This document shows positions 54,440-64,000 of a DNA stretch of 64,000 nucleotides, piece after piece. The number at the start of each line of letters is the position of its first letter. Position 1 is the stretch's first letter. Origin of the DNA: a virus. Both the position numbers and the translations under genes were made by a program. Location of the stretch: IMG/VR virus record IMGVR_UViG_3300021373_003070; one strand, written 5' to 3'. The notes below the pieces were generated by a model. That model was not told the DNA's origin and did not search any database. It saw nothing but the letters and a program-made list of their open reading frames with translations.

Positions 54440-54569
54440 TATCGGACTGCTCGGTCTATTAGCAGTGTTCCTATGTCCGATGGTATTCGGTGGTATCACC
54501 ATGTACTACTCGCACGAAGCAATACATAAAGCAACTCTACAACGGTGGAAACAACATGAAGAAGTTTAA
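54432..54569 (+). CDS. Small membrane protein (45 aa, not in ORF track)
   Basis: MDDIGLLGLLAVFLCPMVFGG...; overlaps both neighbours. Confidence 0.5.
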   Translation: MDDIGLLGLLAVFLCPMVFGGITMYYSHEAIHKATLQRWKQHEEV

Positions 54570-55785
54570 CCAATACATCATTGAAGCAAAGAATACTCAC
54601 ATGGAACACGTTGAGGATTTGATGTTCAATGAAGGTGTAGCTGGTACAAGGAAAGCAATTAACTTCTTACGTAATTTGCGAGACATGTTAGCAGGTTCAT
54701 CGAACAAAAATATCTCACGTACTGTCAAATGGGATGGAGCACCAGCCGTGTTTGTTGGCATCGATCCATCAGATGGTAAGTTCTTTGTCGCAAAGAAAGG
54801 TGTATTCAATAAAGATCCGAAAGTCTACAAGACACCAGCAGATGTAAAGGCTGATACGAGCGGTGATCTACAAGCTAAACTACTTTTAGCACTACAAGAA
54901 TTTTCAAAGCTAGGTATCAAATCTGGTGTATATCAAGGCGATCTGATGTTTACGAAAGGCGACGTTCAGAAGGAAAAAATAGATGATCAATCGTATTTTA
55001 CTTTTCAGCCCAATACTATTGTATATGCTATACCTGTCGGTTCTGCCATCGGTAGGGAAATTACCCGAGCAAACATCGGAGTTGTGTGGCATACAGCATA
55101 CAGTGGGGAGTCATTTGAAACAATGCGAGCCTCATTTGGTAAGCCAATCGTCAACAAGTTCAACCAATCAAAAAGCATCTGGCAAGTAGACGCTAACTAC
55201 GAAGACGAAACTGGTAAAGCTTTGTTTAGTGCCGCTGAGACTGCAGCTGTGACTGCAAAATTATCCGAAGCAGGTAAATTATTCAATGCTGTGCCAGCTG
55301 GTCTCTTAAATGGTATCGCAACCAATGACGAGTTACGAGAGCGATTGAAGGTATTCAATAATACATTTATTAGAGCTGGTCAACGAGCTAATCCTAAAAC
55401 ACATACTCGTAAGCTCATCTCATTTATGACTGACTATTATAAGAAGCAATCAGATAGTCGATCTTCAGAGAGAGGCAAGGCTGCAGTTAAATCAAGACAA
55501 GCTGCGGCTGTTAAGATCTTCTCACAATACAAAGCTAATGACTTTGAAAACATGTTTAAGTTGATGTTAGTTATGACTGATGCAAAGAACATGATTGTCG
55601 ATAAGATGAATCAAGCCGGAAAGCTGAGTACATTCCTCCGTACACGTAATGGTTTTAAAGTCACGAATCCAGAAGGCTTTGTTGCAATCGATCATCTTAG
55701 CAATGACGCTGTCAAAATCATTGATCGCCTCGAATTCTCTCAAGCAAACTTCTCACCTGACATCATAAAAGGATGGCAGAAATAA
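54556..55785 (+). CDS. Ligase-like covalent nucleotidyltransferase (DUF6267-like) with capsid-targeting-like N-terminus
   Basis: MKKFNQYIIE; TVKWDG (KxDG), QGDLMF, PEGFV, VKIIDR. Confidence 0.7.
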   Translation: MKKFNQYIIEAKNTHMEHVEDLMFNEGVAGTRKAINFLRNLRDMLAGSSNKNISRTVKWDGAPAVFVGIDPSDGKFFVAKKGVFNKDPKVYKTPADVKADTSGDLQAKLLLALQEFSKLGIKSGVYQGDLMFTKGDVQKEKIDDQSYFTFQPNTIVYAIPVGSAIGREITRANIGVVWHTAYSGESFETMRASFGKPIVNKFNQSKSIWQVDANYEDETGKALFSAAETAAVTAKLSEAGKLFNAVPAGLLNGIATNDELRERLKVFNNTFIRAGQRANPKTHTRKLISFMTDYYKKQSDSRSSERGKAAVKSRQAAAVKIFSQYKANDFENMFKLMLVMTDAKNMIVDKMNQAGKLSTFLRTRNGFKVTNPEGFVAIDHLSNDAVKIIDRLEFSQANFSPDIIKGWQK

Positions 55786-57130: not shown

Positions 57131-57938
57131 ACAAGTCCCAGATAAAGTCTATATAATCTACAATTCTGGCAACGATAAGTCTGAAGAATATATGGGCGTT
57201 GCTCGTAGATCTATCAAGCGTGTTGAGATGGACTTCGAAGAGGTAGATTGGCCTACTGATATAGATGAATGTTGGAAGAAAGTCGAGCATCTCAACATCA
57301 AAGATCATGGTCATTTTAACTATTCGCAACCGTTGTATCCTGACTATCATGCTGATCGTACACCTATCGAACAAAAGAATGCAGCAGAGTCAGTCACTTT
57401 AGCTCATCTATATTTATGGGATAAAATAGCAAAAAGTGGTGAAGCGGCATGCATTGTTGAGCATGACTTTATATTCTATAATAACATCGATATGATCATA
57501 CCTGATGGTTTTATTGTCGGCCTAGGATATAAGTTAGCCGAAGCCAATGCATATAGGAATGATTTTCATAACTTAGATGATAAACCAAAAGAAATCGTAT
57601 TGGCTGATAAGATACTTGGTGCACATGGCTATGCTATCACAGCAAAGACTGCTCAAAATCTTGTAGACGAGGCGATAAATAAAGGTACACAAGGCTGGAT
57701 TGATTGCGTTTACTTTCAAGGTAACTCATTGAGACTAACTGATACACGAACATCGATGATGAGTCCACCACCCGGTGCTGCATTGTTACGTGATTCTACT
57801 ATCTGGCCTGTTGTTGCAACGTTAAATTATAAGTGTTGTGATTCATTTATTAAACGATGTAAACCAGAATATACAAACAAGAAACGCAACGAAATATCTC
57901 GACATCACTTCGCAAGCTTAAAAATGAGAAGTGTATAA
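57123..57938 (+). CDS. GT25-like glycosyltransferase
   Basis: AHLYLW..I, IVEHD, GAHGYAIT...A..L. Confidence 0.7.
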   Translation: MSKQVPDKVYIIYNSGNDKSEEYMGVARRSIKRVEMDFEEVDWPTDIDECWKKVEHLNIKDHGHFNYSQPLYPDYHADRTPIEQKNAAESVTLAHLYLWDKIAKSGEAACIVEHDFIFYNNIDMIIPDGFIVGLGYKLAEANAYRNDFHNLDDKPKEIVLADKILGAHGYAITAKTAQNLVDEAINKGTQGWIDCVYFQGNSLRLTDTRTSMMSPPPGAALLRDSTIWPVVATLNYKCCDSFIKRCKPEYTNKKRNEISRHHFASLKMRSV

Positions 57939-57941
57939 ATA
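57934..57941 (+). promoter_or_regulatory. Late promoter TATAAATA
   Basis: Exact consensus about 40 nt before the 57979 start. Confidence 0.7.
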
Positions 57942-57978: not shown

Positions 57979-59505
57979 ATGAAGAAAATTGTAATCTGCT
58001 TCGGCAGAATGAATCCTGTTACTGTGGGACACGAGAAACTGGTCAAAAAGATCCAGTCTGTTGCTCGTTCTCAGCGCGCTGATGCCGCCGTCTACTTGTC
58101 GCATTCGCAAGACAAGAAAAAGAATCCACTCTCATATCAAGACAAAATACGATTTGCAACCAAGGCATTTGGTTCTGTCGTAAAAAAGTCTAACGCCAAT
58201 ACAATCATCAAAGTATTACAGGAACTCGATAGTAAGTATGACGAGGTAACACTCGTGGCTGGTTCTGATCGTGTGAAGGACTTTGATTCATTGCTTAATA
58301 AATATAATGGCAAAGACTATACGTTCAAAAGTATTAAGGTTGTTTCAGCCGGTGAAAGAGATCCGGATGCAGATGATGTTTCAGGAATGTCTGCTTCGAA
58401 GATGAGAGCTCTTGCAGGATCCGGCGATTTTGCACAATTTAAAAAAGGTTTACCTCGTGGATTGCAGGGTAAAGAGGCCAAACAAATGTATGATAAAATA
58501 AGAGATGCCGCCGGTATCAAAGAAGAGAACATACAAGAAGTCCTGACTGTTCAACAGCGTCTCAAAAAGAAAGCTATGATGAAGCGTATCAAGTCTAAGA
58601 TCAAGCTTGGTCGCCGACGTGCTAAGTATAAGGTAGCAAATAAGCAGAAGCTGACAGTAAGATCACAGAAGAAAGCTCGCGAGCTTATTCGTCAACGTGT
58701 TGCTGGCGCACTTGGTAAAAATTATAAGTCACTACCACTCGCTGGTCGTATGCAAGTAGATAAGAAAGTAGAAAAGAAAGCAGCATTGATCAAGCAGATA
58801 GCAAAGCGTATGCTTCCAAAAGTTCGTAAGGCAGAGATGGAGCGAGTTAGCAAAGCTCGAAAGTCTCGCAATGAAAATTACGAAATGTTGTCAATGATCG
58901 AGTCGGTTTACGAAGTTGTAAAGAACGAAGAAATCACGCAAAAAGTAGAACGCAATCTTGCTCGTAAGAGTGAGAAATATGGTGTACAGTTCGAAGAGCT
59001 GAAAGAAAAGTATTTGTCATATCGTCAGTTTGCAAGCGAGGCAGATACATTCCAAGCGATCAACTCTGAGCTTGCGAACGAAGCAATATCACCTGAATCA
59101 CAAAAAGCTCATCGTGGTATGTTTAAAGCAGCACAAAAGAAGAAAGACGATGCGGCCGCACAGCGTGAAAGAGAAACAAGATTAAAGAAAAAAGGTTGGG
59201 TTAGAAACGATCGCGGCGGTTTCTCTAAGATCACCGAAGACGATAAGCCTAATAAGCGAGGCGATGATAGTAAAGGTCATAAGCGGCCGACTGAAGATGG
59301 TGCTGGTTTGACACGTAAAGGTGCAAAGGCAGCCGGTGTCAAAACCGCTGTGACTACACCACCTAGCAAGTTAGATCCAAAGGGAAAAGCTGCTAAGCGA
59401 CGTAAGTCATTCTGTGCTCGTATGGGTGGTATGAAAGGACCAATGAAGGACGAAAAAGGACGGCCAACACGAAAGGCCATGTCATTAAGAAGGTGGAATT
59501 GCTAA
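57979..59505 (+). CDS. HxGH-family nucleotidyltransferase fused to basic modules
   Basis: FGRMNP.T.GH, KNPL, AGSDR, GMSASKMR; Lys/Arg-rich tail punctuated by [ILV]xE. Confidence 0.8.
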   Translation: MKKIVICFGRMNPVTVGHEKLVKKIQSVARSQRADAAVYLSHSQDKKKNPLSYQDKIRFATKAFGSVVKKSNANTIIKVLQELDSKYDEVTLVAGSDRVKDFDSLLNKYNGKDYTFKSIKVVSAGERDPDADDVSGMSASKMRALAGSGDFAQFKKGLPRGLQGKEAKQMYDKIRDAAGIKEENIQEVLTVQQRLKKKAMMKRIKSKIKLGRRRAKYKVANKQKLTVRSQKKARELIRQRVAGALGKNYKSLPLAGRMQVDKKVEKKAALIKQIAKRMLPKVRKAEMERVSKARKSRNENYEMLSMIESVYEVVKNEEITQKVERNLARKSEKYGVQFEELKEKYLSYRQFASEADTFQAINSELANEAISPESQKAHRGMFKAAQKKKDDAAAQRERETRLKKKGWVRNDRGGFSKITEDDKPNKRGDDSKGHKRPTEDGAGLTRKGAKAAGVKTAVTTPPSKLDPKGKAAKRRKSFCARMGGMKGPMKDEKGRPTRKAMSLRRWNC

Positions 59506-59506
59506 C

Positions 59507-60478
59507 ATGGAATACAAAACAAATGCAAAAGCTCGTATTGATCGAGAAAAGAAAGCTGATAAAAGAAAGCATGACACCATGATGGATAGAGCCAGAATTC
59601 GAGATGCGCGCGCTAAGAATCAAGCAACAAAAGCTGAAGCAGTTGAGCGACTTGACGAGTTAGGTAAGAAGACACTCGGCTCTTATATCAAAAAGGCTTC
59701 TAAGAGCGCTGCAGATAACAAAGCTGCGTCGGCTACATACAGCATGGCGGCAAATAAAGAAGCTCCGCGAAGTTCTGGTGAAAGAAGCATGAGAAAACAT
59801 GAACTAAGCACATTTCAAAAGTCGCAGCGACGTCAAAAAGGTATCGAAAGAGCTACCGATCGGTTGACACGAGAAGATATCGAGCAGGTTGATGAGATAT
59901 CAGCAAAGACTGCAAAATCTGCATGGTTGAAGCGTAAGGCACAGGCTGCAAAGGTAAGTGGCCACAATCATGACATTCTTGCTGCGAAGGCGCGAAAGAA
60001 CAAAGAGCGATTTGGCTATAAAGAAGAACTGCCAGAAGCTAAATCAGCACAAGATCCAGATATTAAGGATCGTGAAGGTACACAACCAGCAGCATATCAC
60101 AAAGGTCTAAAGAAGTCGACCAAAGCCAAGCGTGATGCTCATTTTAAGAAACACGGACCAAAAGCGGACAACGATCAATCAGCATACGGTGATGCACCGG
60201 GCGATAAGGCAGCTCGCAAAAAGGGTATGCCAAAGTCTAAGCACACAAAATTCGTTGACAATATGATGAAAGAAGAAGATTCTGGATTCGCAGCAAAGTC
60301 GAAGAAGTCAGGTATTTCGGTATCGACTCTTCGCAAAGTTTACAATAGAGGCGTTGCAGCATGGAAAACCGGTCATCGGCCGGGAACGACACCACAACAG
60401 TGGGGCCATGCACGAGTCAATGCATTTATTGCAAAGAAGAAGAAAGGTGGATTGAACCACGATAAAGATTTAGCATGA
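59507..60478 (+). CDS. Basic modular protein, probable internal head polyprotein
   Basis: LDE/LGKKTLGSYIKKA, VDE/ISAKT, LPE/AK; terminal module KSG.....L..VYNRG.AAW.TGHRPG..PQQW..ARVN.F. Confidence 0.7.
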   Translation: MEYKTNAKARIDREKKADKRKHDTMMDRARIRDARAKNQATKAEAVERLDELGKKTLGSYIKKASKSAADNKAASATYSMAANKEAPRSSGERSMRKHELSTFQKSQRRQKGIERATDRLTREDIEQVDEISAKTAKSAWLKRKAQAAKVSGHNHDILAAKARKNKERFGYKEELPEAKSAQDPDIKDREGTQPAAYHKGLKKSTKAKRDAHFKKHGPKADNDQSAYGDAPGDKAARKKGMPKSKHTKFVDNMMKEEDSGFAAKSKKSGISVSTLRKVYNRGVAAWKTGHRPGTTPQQWGHARVNAFIAKKKKGGLNHDKDLA

Positions 60479-60485
60479 GGATATT

Positions 60486-60764
60486 ATGACTGATATAAAA
60501 GATACACAACAGAATTACCAAGGCTTAAATAGTGCAGTGATGGATGTACTGCAGAAGAATCAAGATCTATATCGACAGGATCTTGAGAATCAATTTGCTA
60601 AGTATATGATTGCGCCAGAAGAAGAAGCGCCTAATCCTACTGAAGCAGAAATGGATGCAGCTACACAACAAAATGTAGTAGCCACTCCTGATCCTATTGC
60701 AGAGCCTGAAGCTGTAAATCCAGACGACGTCATCGATGGCGCAAGTGGTATGTCTGAAGAGTAA
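60486..60764 (+). CDS. Acidic hypothetical protein
   Basis: GAGG RBS; Glu/Asp/Pro-rich. Confidence 0.65.
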   Translation: MTDIKDTQQNYQGLNSAVMDVLQKNQDLYRQDLENQFAKYMIAPEEEAPNPTEAEMDAATQQNVVATPDPIAEPEAVNPDDVIDGASGMSEE

Positions 60765-60767
60765 ACA

Positions 60768-61586
60768 ATGCGAGTTTTATTTTTGTTATCTGGCGAGATT
60801 AGAGGTTCTCGCACGAAAGCTAATATAGAATGGATTAAAGAGTGTTTACCAGATATTGATGTAAAGTGCATTACATGGAACAGAGGTATCGAGTATTCAT
60901 TCGTTGATAAGTATTATGATGAGCCAGTTGCAACTTATTGGCCTGAAAATTCAAAGCAGCACGTCCTACATAGAATTGAAGGACTGAGGCAGTTGAAGAA
61001 ATCGGGTGCAGATTGGCCGCCGTTAAACAACCATGATTTTGAATTGGTGACACAGAGATTTAGTCAAAACGCCAATAATAGAAATCGATGGAAAAAACGG
61101 CATTATCAATTGTTGCAGCATGCATTAGGTGTCGATGATTTTGGTGATGGATATGATATCATAGTAAGAGGACGATTCGATTATCCTTATAGAAACTATG
61201 ATCATATCAAACTGGCTATCGAATATTTAAGTATGAGTAAGACTGATATTGTAGAGGTGAGAAACTCGGTCGATGTTGAAGGTCATGAATTTATTGAACC
61301 AGAGCTAAATTGGTTATCATGGGATTTTACGATCATACATCGAAAAGAAGCATACGATACAGATTTTATTTGGAATGAGCATAAGAACAAAAGGTTATTA
61401 GGTGCAGAGAGTGGTTGGAATCAAGCATTTAAATTAGACCAACCTGAACCGCCAAAGCTGATGAGTATTAACGGTCATCGTTGTAAGGAAGTTGGTATGC
61501 ATAGCATACTCGATTATTTCCAAAGAATGGATGACTTGACTGAACAGGAACAGACTTTCTATGAAAGACAAACAGAACAAGTCTAA
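60768..61586 (+). CDS. Putative GT-A-like protein, paralog family member 4
   Basis: RVLFLLSGEIR ... YDIIVRGRFD ... DFTIIHR ... AESGW. Confidence 0.6.
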   Translation: MRVLFLLSGEIRGSRTKANIEWIKECLPDIDVKCITWNRGIEYSFVDKYYDEPVATYWPENSKQHVLHRIEGLRQLKKSGADWPPLNNHDFELVTQRFSQNANNRNRWKKRHYQLLQHALGVDDFGDGYDIIVRGRFDYPYRNYDHIKLAIEYLSMSKTDIVEVRNSVDVEGHEFIEPELNWLSWDFTIIHRKEAYDTDFIWNEHKNKRLLGAESGWNQAFKLDQPEPPKLMSINGHRCKEVGMHSILDYFQRMDDLTEQEQTFYERQTEQV

Positions 61587-64000
61587 AGATCCAGATGGAC
61601 CTTTGCCAAAATGGGGTGAGCCGAAAGGTGTCGCTAAGTATATGGCGTTTACTCCCGGTCAGAAAAAAGTAAAAGAAGCTTGCTGGGATGGCTATAAAAA
61701 GGTAGGTATGAAAAAGAAAGGCAAGAAAATGGTACCGGATTGTGTACCAGAAATGAAGACGATTAAAGTTGGAGAAGATGCTATCGGCTCCAACAATTGT
61801 CATTATGCTCTTGTTCAGTCGAGAAAGGTAATCGCTACCGGTACCAAAGAAGAGATGATGTCACAATGCCAAGAAAAAGGTGGTCGTGTTTGGGTATCTA
61901 CAAAAGCAGTTGGCGATATTGTCGAAGCCAAGTATAGTGTAGATGTAAGCGGTTTACCTCGTTTTTACATGGATGCAGACTCACCAGCTGAGATCAAGAA
62001 GAAGCTGCGAGTATTGCTTCGTAAAGTTTCAGACATCGACAGTGTAGATCGTGTAAACGACGCTAAGATTAAAGCAGATCTACGTCAAAGAATTAAAGGT
62101 GCTGATACCAATAAGAGATTGGTTGACGAAGAACTCGGTTGCTTTCCAGCAGGTAGCTTAGTATTTGTACAGAGCGACATCAATTCTGAAGCAGCATGGA
62201 CAAATATTCCAGAAGAAGAGCCTGAATTTGATTACGGCGAAGATACCTATGTTGAATTCAAAGCAATCGAAGAAGTTGTAGTTGGTGATGTGATTCTAGG
62301 ATACGGTGGCTGGAACACAGTTGAAGAAGTTCATCACTATCCACAAGAATCTCGTAACATGGTTACATATCAGTTTGCAGGTAACCTCGTTGACTGGACT
62401 GGATCGTTGAAGTGTACAGATTATCATCCGATTATGTTCAATCGACAACGTATATGGGAAACAAGAAAAGATTTTAATCATGGTGATCATACGTATGCAT
62501 GGTGTTCAGCAAATCCAGCCTTAAGTAACACTAAGCATCCCGGTCTCGATGTGACAGAGCCATTGATTGGTGATTATGCTGTTACATATACTGCATATCC
62601 ACCTGATATTGATGCTCCATGGAATTACACATCGTTGACTGGTATGACTACAACAACCGAAAACATACCTGTATACAACCTGACTGTGTCAGGTGACCAT
62701 ACGTATATAGTAAATAGTATAGTCGTACACAATAAAAATTTAGATGAGAAGCTAGGTAACAGTTCCACCGCTGGTGACTGGATAAAAGATTTTAGAAAAT
62801 CAGATGCTCCTCAGTTTAAAGGTAAATCAAAAGAGAAAAAGACTAAGATGGCCATTGCTGCCTATCTTAATCATCGCAGACAAAAGGGACTAGAAGAGAT
62901 GGCCTATCGTAAACCAACTGCCGCTGAGATTGCGGCTGATCGTAAAAAAGATAAGAAGGCACCAGAAGGTGATCGCGCTAGCCGAATAAAGAAAAAAGTG
63001 TATGGTAATGCGATGGGCGGTTTGAAGAAAGAATCAACAGCAGAATATGGTAAGTCTATGGATCGTATTCAGGCCAAGAAAACTTCTGATCAATTATCAC
63101 CGGAACATAAGAAAAAGCTATCTGCATTGCATGCTCTTATGAAGAAGCAAAGAAAGACAGGTAACTACAAGATGGAAGATACACAGCTTGAAGAATCAAA
63201 GAAAGCAGTAGCTGCATTGAATATGTTGGCGAAGAAAGATAGCCGAGTTATTCCGGATCAAATCGCCATGTTGAATAGAATTGTCATGGATGGCAAGCAT
63301 AAGGATGCACACAAGTTTGTTCGAGGAATGGATAAAAAGATTTCATCAACTGTTGCCGGCATCCTACGCAAGCATGGTATAAAAGAGGAAAAAGATACGA
63401 CACCAGAAGAGAAGGCTAAGAAGCGTCAGGCATTCCTTGATCGTCTTCGTGGCAAGCCGCCCGTTAGAGAAGAAGATGAACATCATTACGTAAAGGTACA
63501 TGGCAAATCATACCGCGATCATCTCTATGTAAAAACCAAAGCAGCCAGCAAGCGTGACGCCGTTGCTAAAATTAAAAAAGAATATCCAAACAATAAAGTC
63601 ACTTACCATAAAGAGGAACTAGATATGAACGAAGGTTCAATAAAAGGTTCTGATACATCTAGCGTAAAGGGTAAGCTCAAGAAAGCTTTCCGTAAAGGCG
63701 AAGCTGATCAGAAAACATTTAACACGGCGGGCGGTATGCCAAGACGTAAAGAGCCAAAGAATCCAAAGACTGGAGAGCAAAAGGCTTATAAAGCAGGTCG
63801 TCAGGCTGGATATTCAACCAATAAAACTGGTGCTGCGCGATCAAAGCCACAAGATTCTCTGAATTACAAATCAAATAAGATGTTCCCAAAGCGTCCTACT
63901 GGTTTTAGTGCAGATCCTAAGTTGCCAAAAGATAGGAAGCCACAGAGTGAAGGTTTTGCAGATAATAAGCCTAAGCCTCGATTCTCTGATCGCATGTCAA
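61561..64000 (+). CDS. Large basic modular polyprotein with an embedded Hint domain (>813 aa, runs off the window; absent from ORF track)
   Basis: Translated by hand from ATG 61561 with no stop to 64000; modules CWDGYKKVGMKKKGKKMVPDCVP and DFRKSDAPQFKGKS. Confidence 0.85.
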   Translation, partial: MKDKQNKSKDPDGPLPKWGEPKGVAKYMAFTPGQKKVKEACWDGYKKVGMKKKGKKMVPDCVPEMKTIKVGEDAIGSNNCHYALVQSRKVIATGTKEEMMSQCQEKGGRVWVSTKAVGDIVEAKYSVDVSGLPRFYMDADSPAEIKKKLRVLLRKVSDIDSVDRVNDAKIKADLRQRIKGADTNKRLVDEELGCFPAGSLVFVQSDINSEAAWTNIPEEEPEFDYGEDTYVEFKAIEEVVVGDVILGYGGWNTVEEVHHYPQESRNMVTYQFAGNLVDWTGSLKCTDYHPIMFNRQRIWETRKDFNHGDHTYAWCSANPALSNTKHPGLDVTEPLIGDYAVTYTAYPPDIDAPWNYTSLTGMTTTTENIPVYNLTVSGDHTYIVNSIVVHNKNLDEKLGNSSTAGDWIKDFRKSDAPQFKGKSKEKKTKMAIAAYLNHRRQKGLEEMAYRKPTAAEIAADRKKDKKAPEGDRASRIKKKVYGNAMGGLKKESTAEYGKSMDRIQAKKTSDQLSPEHKKKLSALHALMKKQRKTGNYKMEDTQLEESKKAVAALNMLAKKDSRVIPDQIAMLNRIVMDGKHKDAHKFVRGMDKKISSTVAGILRKHGIKEEKDTTPEEKAKKRQAFLDRLRGKPPVREEDEHHYVKVHGKSYRDHLYVKTKAASKRDAVAKIKKEYPNNKVTYHKEELDMNEGSIKGSDTSSVKGKLKKAFRKGEADQKTFNTAGGMPRRKEPKNPKTGEQKAYKAGRQAGYSTNKTGAARSKPQDSLNYKSNKMFPKRPTGFSADPKLPKDRKPQSEGFADNKPKPRFSDRMS
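62140..62733 (+). other. Hint (bacterial intein-like, BIL-type) domain, 198 aa
   Basis: CFPAGSLV (block A), LKCTDYHPI (block B, TxxH), VYNLTVSGDHTYIVNSIVVHN (blocks F/G); +1 residue is Lys; no endonuclease domain. Confidence 0.88.

Follow-up and report, generated by a model that had tools for sequence, protein, structure and literature searches.

The 64,000-nucleotide stretch of viral DNA in IMG/VR record IMGVR_UViG_3300021373_003070 (hereafter the window) ends inside a gene on the plus strand (61561..63999), whose lysine-rich product is, judging from comparison with its homologues, a mosaic of small cassettes delimited by phi-x-Glu (phi, a hydrophobic residue). One of these cassettes holds what is predicted to be a complete Hint domain, and the residue that follows the domain (position +1) is Lys. 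By their sequences, Hint domains with a +1 Lys constitute a distinct phage clade, which is named HNK here. Taken as a whole, the reading that we favour, with a probability of about 0.5, is that the cassette protein is a head-cargo polyprotein which is cut after Glu and which contains an active HNK Hint cassette.

Cassette organisation of the gene

The gene has 813 open codons up to the window end, and its start codon is backed by homologous N-termini and by an AGGA sequence about 12 nucleotides 5' of the ATG. It is a genuine gene, as the initial annotation, which was made from the window sequence, had held when it drew an open reading frame (ORF) from 61561 to the window end. A search of 5.8 billion proteins returned 686 relatives, the best of them 50-75% identical. 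The close homologue P0001 (992 amino acids) is separated from the window protein by one 83-amino-acid insertion and two deletions, and extends about 290 amino acids beyond the position matching the window end. Searches of IMG/VR and of metagenome contigs for the sequence of the window end gave no match. Among GenBank phages, megablast of the 57-64 kb region gave zero matches, so that no close phage exists there at the DNA level, and the sole tblastn match was phage C48C1, covering residues 448-564. The features of the gene are as follows.

61561..63999, plus strand: gene open at its 3' end; its mosaic, Lys-rich product exceeds 813 amino acids
61561..61677, plus strand: cassette 1, residues 1-39, N-terminal module ending VKE; kept in about 15 homologues; no T4-type capsid-targeting leader
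61678..61752, plus strand: cassette 2, residues 40-64, CW..GY..CV beta-hairpin ending VPE; absent from P0005-P0009 and within the 83-amino-acid deletion of P0001
61753..61926, plus strand: cassette 3, residues 65-122, small alpha/beta domain ending IVE; insertions of 6 or 100 amino acids directly 3' in homologues
61927..62130, plus strand: cassette 4, residues 123-190, small alpha/beta domain ending VDE; its junction is an insertion hot spot
62131..62748, plus strand: Hint cassette, residues 191-396 (ELG, Hint, KNLDE); absent from the homologue L001
62140..62733, plus strand: predicted Hint domain proper, C194..N391 (AlphaFold, Foldseek, alignment)
62140-62142, plus strand: Cys1 (C194)
62416-62427, plus strand: block B TDYH, T286-x-x-H289
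62728-62733, plus strand: terminal His-Asn, H390-N391
62734..62736, plus strand: +1 Lys392
62749..62898, plus strand: cassette 6, residues 397-446, helical, with SDAPQFKG, ending LEE; the most widespread module, in 90 of the 120 listed homologues
62899..63633, plus strand: cassettes 7-11, residues 447-691, with junctions KKE491, LEE545, IKE609, VRE637 and MNE691
63634..63999, plus strand: Lys/Pro-rich tail, residues 692-813, predicted disordered with one low-confidence helix (702-720), cut by the window end

Cassette junctions were defined by the breakpoints of insertions and deletions relative to homologues, BLAST end-point pile-ups being too fuzzy. The robust breakpoints lie at VKE39, VPE64, IVE122, VDE190, LDE396, LEE446, LEE545, IKE609, VRE637 and MNE691, with exceptions near 490 (KKE) and 632; 10 of about 12 are no more than two residues from the Glu of an [ILVM]xE motif, a placement that applies to about 9% of the non-Hint positions (P about 2e-9, by our own binomial arithmetic on breakpoints read by eye). 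No shared DNA motif was found at the junctions, and the constraint therefore acts at the protein level.

In the AlphaFold model of the whole protein (mean predicted local distance difference test score, pLDDT, 60.6) confident small domains are separated by coil or low-confidence linkers, and 9 of the 11 junction Glu residues fall in such linkers. Within cassettes 7-11 the model contains a helical bundle (residues 538-604, pLDDT 93-97) and a beta-beta-alpha-beta domain (641-683), and no fold of the ubiquitin-like kind was found in it, the flanks of the Hint domain being short linkers. Apart from the Hint domain, Lys makes up 18% of the protein, and the modules have no Pfam match, no credible fold in PDB or BFVD and no lead in the ESM Atlas; their PHROG matches are only to families of unknown function.

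Two modules of the relatives are recorded here. The C-termini of P0001, P0002, P0004, P0007 and P0008 contain an EF-hand-like loop, D-x-D-K-D-G-D-I-D, after SPAQKKH, and such a module may be present beyond the window end in the gene studied. In P0049, P0071 (residues 322-344) and P0075 there is a 23-amino-acid module, 57% identical to residues 107-129 of T4 gp23 (GVQPM..PTG..FAL), a segment that we take to overlap the Gol peptide, which binds EF-Tu and triggers the Lit protease; the module may be a capsid-peptide mimic.

Hint domain and its insertion site

According to sequence and model, residues C194-N391 are a complete Hint domain in which the predicted catalytic set is entire, with Cys1, the T-x-x-H of block B and the terminal His-Asn all in place. 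The AlphaFold model of the domain, built with 17 sequences, has a pLDDT of 81 and a predicted template-modelling (TM) score of 0.79. Its best Foldseek match is BIL2 of the Tetrahymena BUBL1 locus (6y75, E 2e-7, TM score 0.78 on the target), with the gp41-1 and NrdJ-1 inteins next, then Hedgehog (1at0) and the bacterial intein-like (BIL) domain of Clostridium thermocellum. Pfam gave a weak signal, Intein_splicing staying below the cut-off (E 0.0033) and Hint_2 having no match to the window protein, and a profile search of PDB sequences gave whole-domain matches only to the C. thermocellum BIL (2lwy, 3e-6) and to BIL2 (6y75, 2e-5). The Cys1, T..H, H-N and +1 Lys positions are invariant or nearly so over 14-17 sequences with 33-73% identity, and three loops of the domain are lineage-specific. 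We infer from these residues that the Hint domain is catalytically active. It had been described at exactly these coordinates in the initial annotation, boxed by LVDEE-LG and KN-LDE and with a +1 Lys that makes canonical splicing unlikely, and all of this agrees with the present analysis; the ideas of a decoy or of an enzyme acting in trans found no support.

Comparison of homologues with and without the module, which had been put forward at the same time, is informative. In the homologue L001 (613 amino acids, 60-78% identical) the Hint domain is missing and VDE joins KL directly, uninterrupted. In the window protein the domain lies between LVDEELG|C upstream and HN|KNLDEKLG downstream, so that a phi-D-E linker motif stands on both sides and the flank is duplicated relative to the empty allele of L001. 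The two flank copies differ at synonymous positions, and they are therefore no recent duplication of DNA; the GC content of the Hint region equals that of its flanks. Cassettes 4 and 6 are both present in 17 homologues, where they abut directly in 10, enclose a Hint domain in two, as they do in the window protein, and enclose other inserts in five (about 65 amino acids in four, about 320 in one). Those inserts that are fully displayed end in phi-x-Glu directly before the next cassette.

Phage Hint domains with a lysine at position +1

Relatives of the Hint domain numbered only 36 in an exhaustive phmmer search of 1.84 billion representatives, the close ones belonging to the same modular protein family and the distant ones ending V-H-N-K. 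A profile search recovered at least 228 HNK-type proteins, almost all of them unnamed. Of 87 near-complete domain copies, 78 have Lys and seven have Cys at +1, the latter being true inteins of radical-SAM and similar enzymes. The host ORF stops directly after the Lys in 41 of 48 IMG/VR loci (L011-L058; V-H-N-K-stop cases include L015:2276-3457, L018:5395-6438 and L011:2386-6390). Ten host proteins were scanned: six match tail families, namely lambda gpI-like tail assembly (phrog_32) and the tail proteins phrog_2048 and phrog_1101, one matches phrog_358 of unknown function, and three gave nothing useful. In the searchable literature, with subscription journals outside its coverage, no account was found of the HNK clade or of Hint domains carried by phage tail proteins.

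A quick tree places the six Hint domains of the modular family in one monophyletic group (support 100) on a long stem, together with 23 terminal HNK-stop Hints at a support of 91, which is weak and is drawn unresolved. Since the six are monophyletic and grouped with the terminal HNK-stop Hints, the sequences suggest that the modular family gained its Hint domain in a single acquisition; its source appears to have been Hint domains that are normally C-terminal on phage tail proteins.

That the Lys is invariant, and is retained even at the final position of a protein, suggests that its amine participates in the Hint chemistry, and the conserved terminal Lys suggests a one-residue 'C-extein'. A precedent is the ciliate BIL2, which resolves its thioester with the epsilon-amine of a Lys (PMC8616854). 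More broadly, the HNK Hint could be a Lys-resolved splicing or ligating domain that joins, caps or anchors phage virion proteins, and that operates here in an injected cargo polyprotein decoded by a protease; we offer this extension tentatively and think it rather unlikely to hold in full. In this variant the amine of the +1 Lys would act as the nucleophile on the Gly-Cys thioester, which would yield an (iso)peptide-linked Lys or transfer the upstream protein to the Lys.

Other arrangements of HNK Hints were also encountered. Giant viral or metagenomic proteins contain HNK Hints in tandem (L051:844-8043, L055:1549-10308; P0121, P0132, P0139), and in these arrays HNK is followed by the next Cys at once or after a few Gly, with little or no cargo between domains. 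In L050:4039-7131 an HNK Hint is followed by SDARLKRNIE, which resembles the beginning of the peptidase S74 type of self-cleaving intramolecular chaperone known from tail fibres; should L050 have this chaperone, two different self-cutting devices would be present on one fibre protein.

Possible head packaging and processing

Capsid packaging and processing by the head protease are plausible for the cassette protein. Head proteases of the gp21 type cut after Glu, as at ITE-6 and LTE-619 in Alt and LIE-9 in gp21 (reviews), and T4 internal proteins are targeted via a short N-terminal leader. MKTYQEFIAE|A is the start shared by IPII and IPIII in the T4 genome, IPI starts MKTFKEF and its leader ends ITE|A, and the internal-protein genes are placed outside the head gene cluster. 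A comparable start, M-[KR]-x-[FY]-x-[EQ], occurs in 26 of the 120 listed relatives (for example MKTFKQLTE), and in the homologous cluster of phage C48C1 consecutive genes begin with MLSFKQFVSE, MITFKKYLEE and MKKFKQYIDE; in fused forms an internal MKSF-x-E relic is found directly after IVE. When the window protein was considered as a gp21 substrate, 10 phi-x-Glu motifs were found at cassette junctions, mostly in predicted linkers. In addition, cytidylyltransferases have been reported in virion proteomes of T4-like cyanophages (PMC10665884), and a cytidylyltransferase-like enzyme is encoded upstream of the cassette gene. The neighbouring features that bear on packaging are the following.

54556..55785, plus strand: neighbour gene whose product starts MKKFNQYIIE|A, the sole leader found in the window that resembles a T4 capsid-targeting sequence (CTS)
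57934..57941, plus strand: TATAAATA, a box like a T4 late promoter, 38 nucleotides 5' of the cluster's first gene
57979..60478, plus strand: upstream pair of genes that belong to the same cassette system, for a cytidylyltransferase-like enzyme with DUF6321 and for a DUF5824 protein (Pfam and PHROG scans)

No strong plus-strand terminator was found between the 57934 box and 64000. The leader of the 54556-55785 product fits the T4 CTS pattern almost perfectly; the product belongs to phrog_455, a profile that also matches, with a different part, the cytidylyltransferase product of 57979-59505.

The following course of events is proposed. The gene product belongs to a large, highly recombining 'beads-on-a-string' protein family of marine T4-like myophages, each bead being a cassette of 25-70 amino acids with its own C-terminal phi-x-Glu. 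The cassette proteins would be internal-head cargo, ejected like the internal proteins and Alt of T4, and the gp21-type head protease would cut after the junction Glu to give small basic proteins. In the Hint domain an N-to-S acyl shift would form a thioester at Gly193-Cys194, Asn391 would cyclise, and the thioester would be resolved by water or by the amine of Lys392. In this manner the Hint domain would remove itself, and the two halves (1-193 and 392 onward) would either be left free or be rejoined through the Lys. With phi-D-E on each side of the Hint domain, the neighbouring cassettes would keep their native ends after trimming, whether joined or free.

Alternative explanations

The cassette protein could instead be a cytoplasmic multi-domain protein that is never packaged, in which the phi-x-Glu motifs are features of linkers and helix ends together with recombination scars, and in which the Hint domain splits the protein or is removed in the infected cell; this we consider possible, if doubtful. 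A number of observations weigh against the head-cargo reading or speak for this alternative. The ORF starts MKDKQNKSKD, with no CTS-like leader and with its first phi-x-E at residue 39, and the gene is sited in a region of replication and nucleotide metabolism. Genes of the cluster are freely fused and split, and the duplicated DE-x-L flanks of the Hint domain resemble a recombination footprint. The motif count of the window protein is near chance (11 [ILVM]xE against 6.5 expected, P 0.04; 5 [IL]xE against 3.1 expected, P 0.19), and the family-wide excess of [ILVM]xE (z 9.7) is equalled by that of the reversed Ex[ILVM] (z 10), with [ILVM]xK at z 5.6. We give the global phi-x-E excess of the family (z 8-10) no weight, since the reversed motif shows as strong an enrichment; the excess may reflect amphipathic helices. 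Further points on the same side are that junction Glu 446 and 545 are inside predicted helices, that half of the sites have Val or Met at P3, where the T4 sites quoted in reviews have Ile or Leu, that TATAAATA shows no enrichment in the window (6 copies, 4.2 expected), and that the activity of the Hint domain is a prediction from fold and residues. The virion-proteome evidence concerns the neighbouring gene family and is thin (3 peptides in S-CREM2), and its authors concede that the virion proteomes may be contaminated (PMC10665884). Against the cytoplasmic alternative stand a Glu-specific grammar that is maintained in protein and not in DNA, an Asp control motif that is flat across the family (z 1.3), the CTS-like leaders of many relatives, the MKSF-x-E relics within fused forms and the late-promoter-like box upstream of the cluster; T4 internal-protein genes likewise lie outside the head gene cluster. 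Of what had initially been claimed, the division into modules at xE sites thus holds for the breakpoints, 10 of about 12, and not for the motif count, which is barely above chance; capsid packaging draws on leaders in relatives and in the neighbour, the late box and the cytidylyltransferase proteomes, and the ORF itself lacks the CTS-like leader.

Two other explanations concern the Hint domain. It could be a true (mini-)intein, selfish, precisely spliced and with no function for the phage, to which the full set of splicing-domain blocks, the presence/absence polymorphism between close homologues and the gp41-1 and NrdJ-1 inteins among the structural matches would correspond. This is improbable: the +1 residue is Lys and not Cys, Ser or Thr, whereas the true inteins among the matches have HN|C or HN|S and stand mostly outside the main HNK group; the site is a hypervariable linker and not a conserved site of an essential protein; a homing endonuclease is absent; duplicated flank residues are not a product of homing; and most members of the clade are at the extreme end of their protein, where nothing is left to splice. 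Alternatively, the Hint domain could be catalytically dead, a folded spacer or binding module, in keeping with its Pfam scores below threshold and its three lineage-specific loops. Dead Hints would be expected to lose their catalytic residues, which are here invariant or nearly so, together with the Lys, down to 33% identity, and for this reason we hold a dead domain to be the most improbable of these explanations.

Relation to known systems

Among known systems the HNK Hint is closest to the A-type BIL domains and to the BUBL BIL2 domains. The A-type BIL domains, reportedly described by Amitai in 2003 and Dassa in 2004, share with it the Hint fold, Cys1, the conserved terminal His-Asn, the absence of an obligatory +1 Cys, Ser or Thr and a location in hypervariable regions of non-conserved proteins. 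They differ from the HNK clade, which has an invariant +1 Lys, occurs in phages and not in bacterial secreted proteins, and usually has its Hints as the last element of tail proteins or lined up in tandem. By sequence, then, the HNK Hint fits the general A-type BIL definition (A-type-specific motifs aside) yet forms its own Lys-marked clade. A-type BIL domains cleave at either end (PMC7765530). BIL2 of Tetrahymena BUBL1 (6Y75/6TMM) is likewise a polyprotein-processing Hint and is the best structural match, but it is eukaryotic and has ubiquitin-like flanks, where the HNK cassette studied here has short phi-D-E linkers in a phage protein; the two are only about 15% identical, and Lys chemistry at the window Hint is assumed by analogy.

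The domain has its fold and the blocks A, B, F and G in common with class 1 mini-inteins (gp41-1, NrdJ-1, DnaB), but it differs by the +1 Lys, by insertion into a linker of a non-conserved protein and by having no homing endonuclease. The canonical intein was accordingly rejected as a description: fold, Cys, TxxH and His-Asn agree with it, but Lys392 at +1 and an insertion in a variable linker with a duplicated flank do not. The C-terminal autoprocessing domain of Hedgehog resembles the HNK Hint in its fold, its C-terminal position and the release of the N-terminal part via a thioester, which for the HNK Hint is proposed. Hedgehog Hint domains are not known to have the terminal His-Asn that the HNK clade keeps, and their nucleophile is a different one. 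It is cholesterol (PMC7765530).

On the side of head proteins, IPI-III and Alt of T4 resemble the present family of putative cargo in being basic proteins encoded outside the head cluster, in the MK-x-[FY]-x-x-phi-phi-x-E leaders of relatives and of the neighbour, and in the implied cutting after Glu. They are single-domain proteins with one or two cuts, whereas the family of the window protein strings together up to a dozen cassettes, with enzymes and a Hint domain; the window ORF is also leaderless, and its packaging is putative. The inner-body and ejection proteins of phiKZ and SPN3US are, like the putative cargo, large and head-internal with multiple x-Glu cuts by a gp21-related protease, but they belong to another phage group, show no sequence similarity and have (S/A/G)-x-E or A-x-E sites, in contrast to the hydrophobic P3 of the window sites.

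An association with the ubiquitin-like anti-phage systems, which the initial annotation had drawn through the BIL domains, was rejected. No ubiquitin-like, E1, E2 or deubiquitinase families were found in the five ORFs of the 57979-64000 cluster and the ten large ORFs elsewhere in the window that were scanned. Bil is the bacterial ISG15-like system, which is not known to be related to bacterial intein-like domains, so that two similar names have been confused; the precedent that does apply is BUBL BIL2 of ciliates, with its Lys isopeptide bonds.

Genomic setting

The window covers the part of a T4-like myophage genome that serves replication and nucleotide metabolism; encoded there are a DNA polymerase of the gp43 type, a helicase of the gp41 type, an SbcC-like nuclease subunit of the gp46 type and a further DNA helicase (phrog_16). 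In the window the genes for the DUF6321-ending and DUF5824 proteins adjoin but are separate (59505/59507), and in L001 one fused frame encodes both (L001:1-1239); fusion and fission of genes at cassette borders are common in this cluster. Literature searches for DUF5824 and 'cytitidyltransferase' found neither family described. At 60768-61586 a 272-amino-acid ORF overlaps the start of the cassette gene by 26 nucleotides; it is absent from the otherwise collinear L001, and Pfam and PHROG scans of it gave no match.

Implications

Should the cassette proteins prove to be packaged and cut, small proteins and enzymes would be carried by marine T4-like phages as a shuffled library, which the head protease would decode and which would enter the cell along with the DNA. 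Such a library would be far more combinatorial than the T4 internal proteins and would be a ready source of early factors for host takeover and counter-defence. Widespread on phage tail proteins, the HNK clade has an invariant Lys in place of the Cys, Ser or Thr of inteins. If this Lys is the nucleophile, the domain would be a natural, ATP-free ligation module or a traceless tag-removal module of biotechnological interest, and BUBL-type chemistry would extend from ciliates to viruses.

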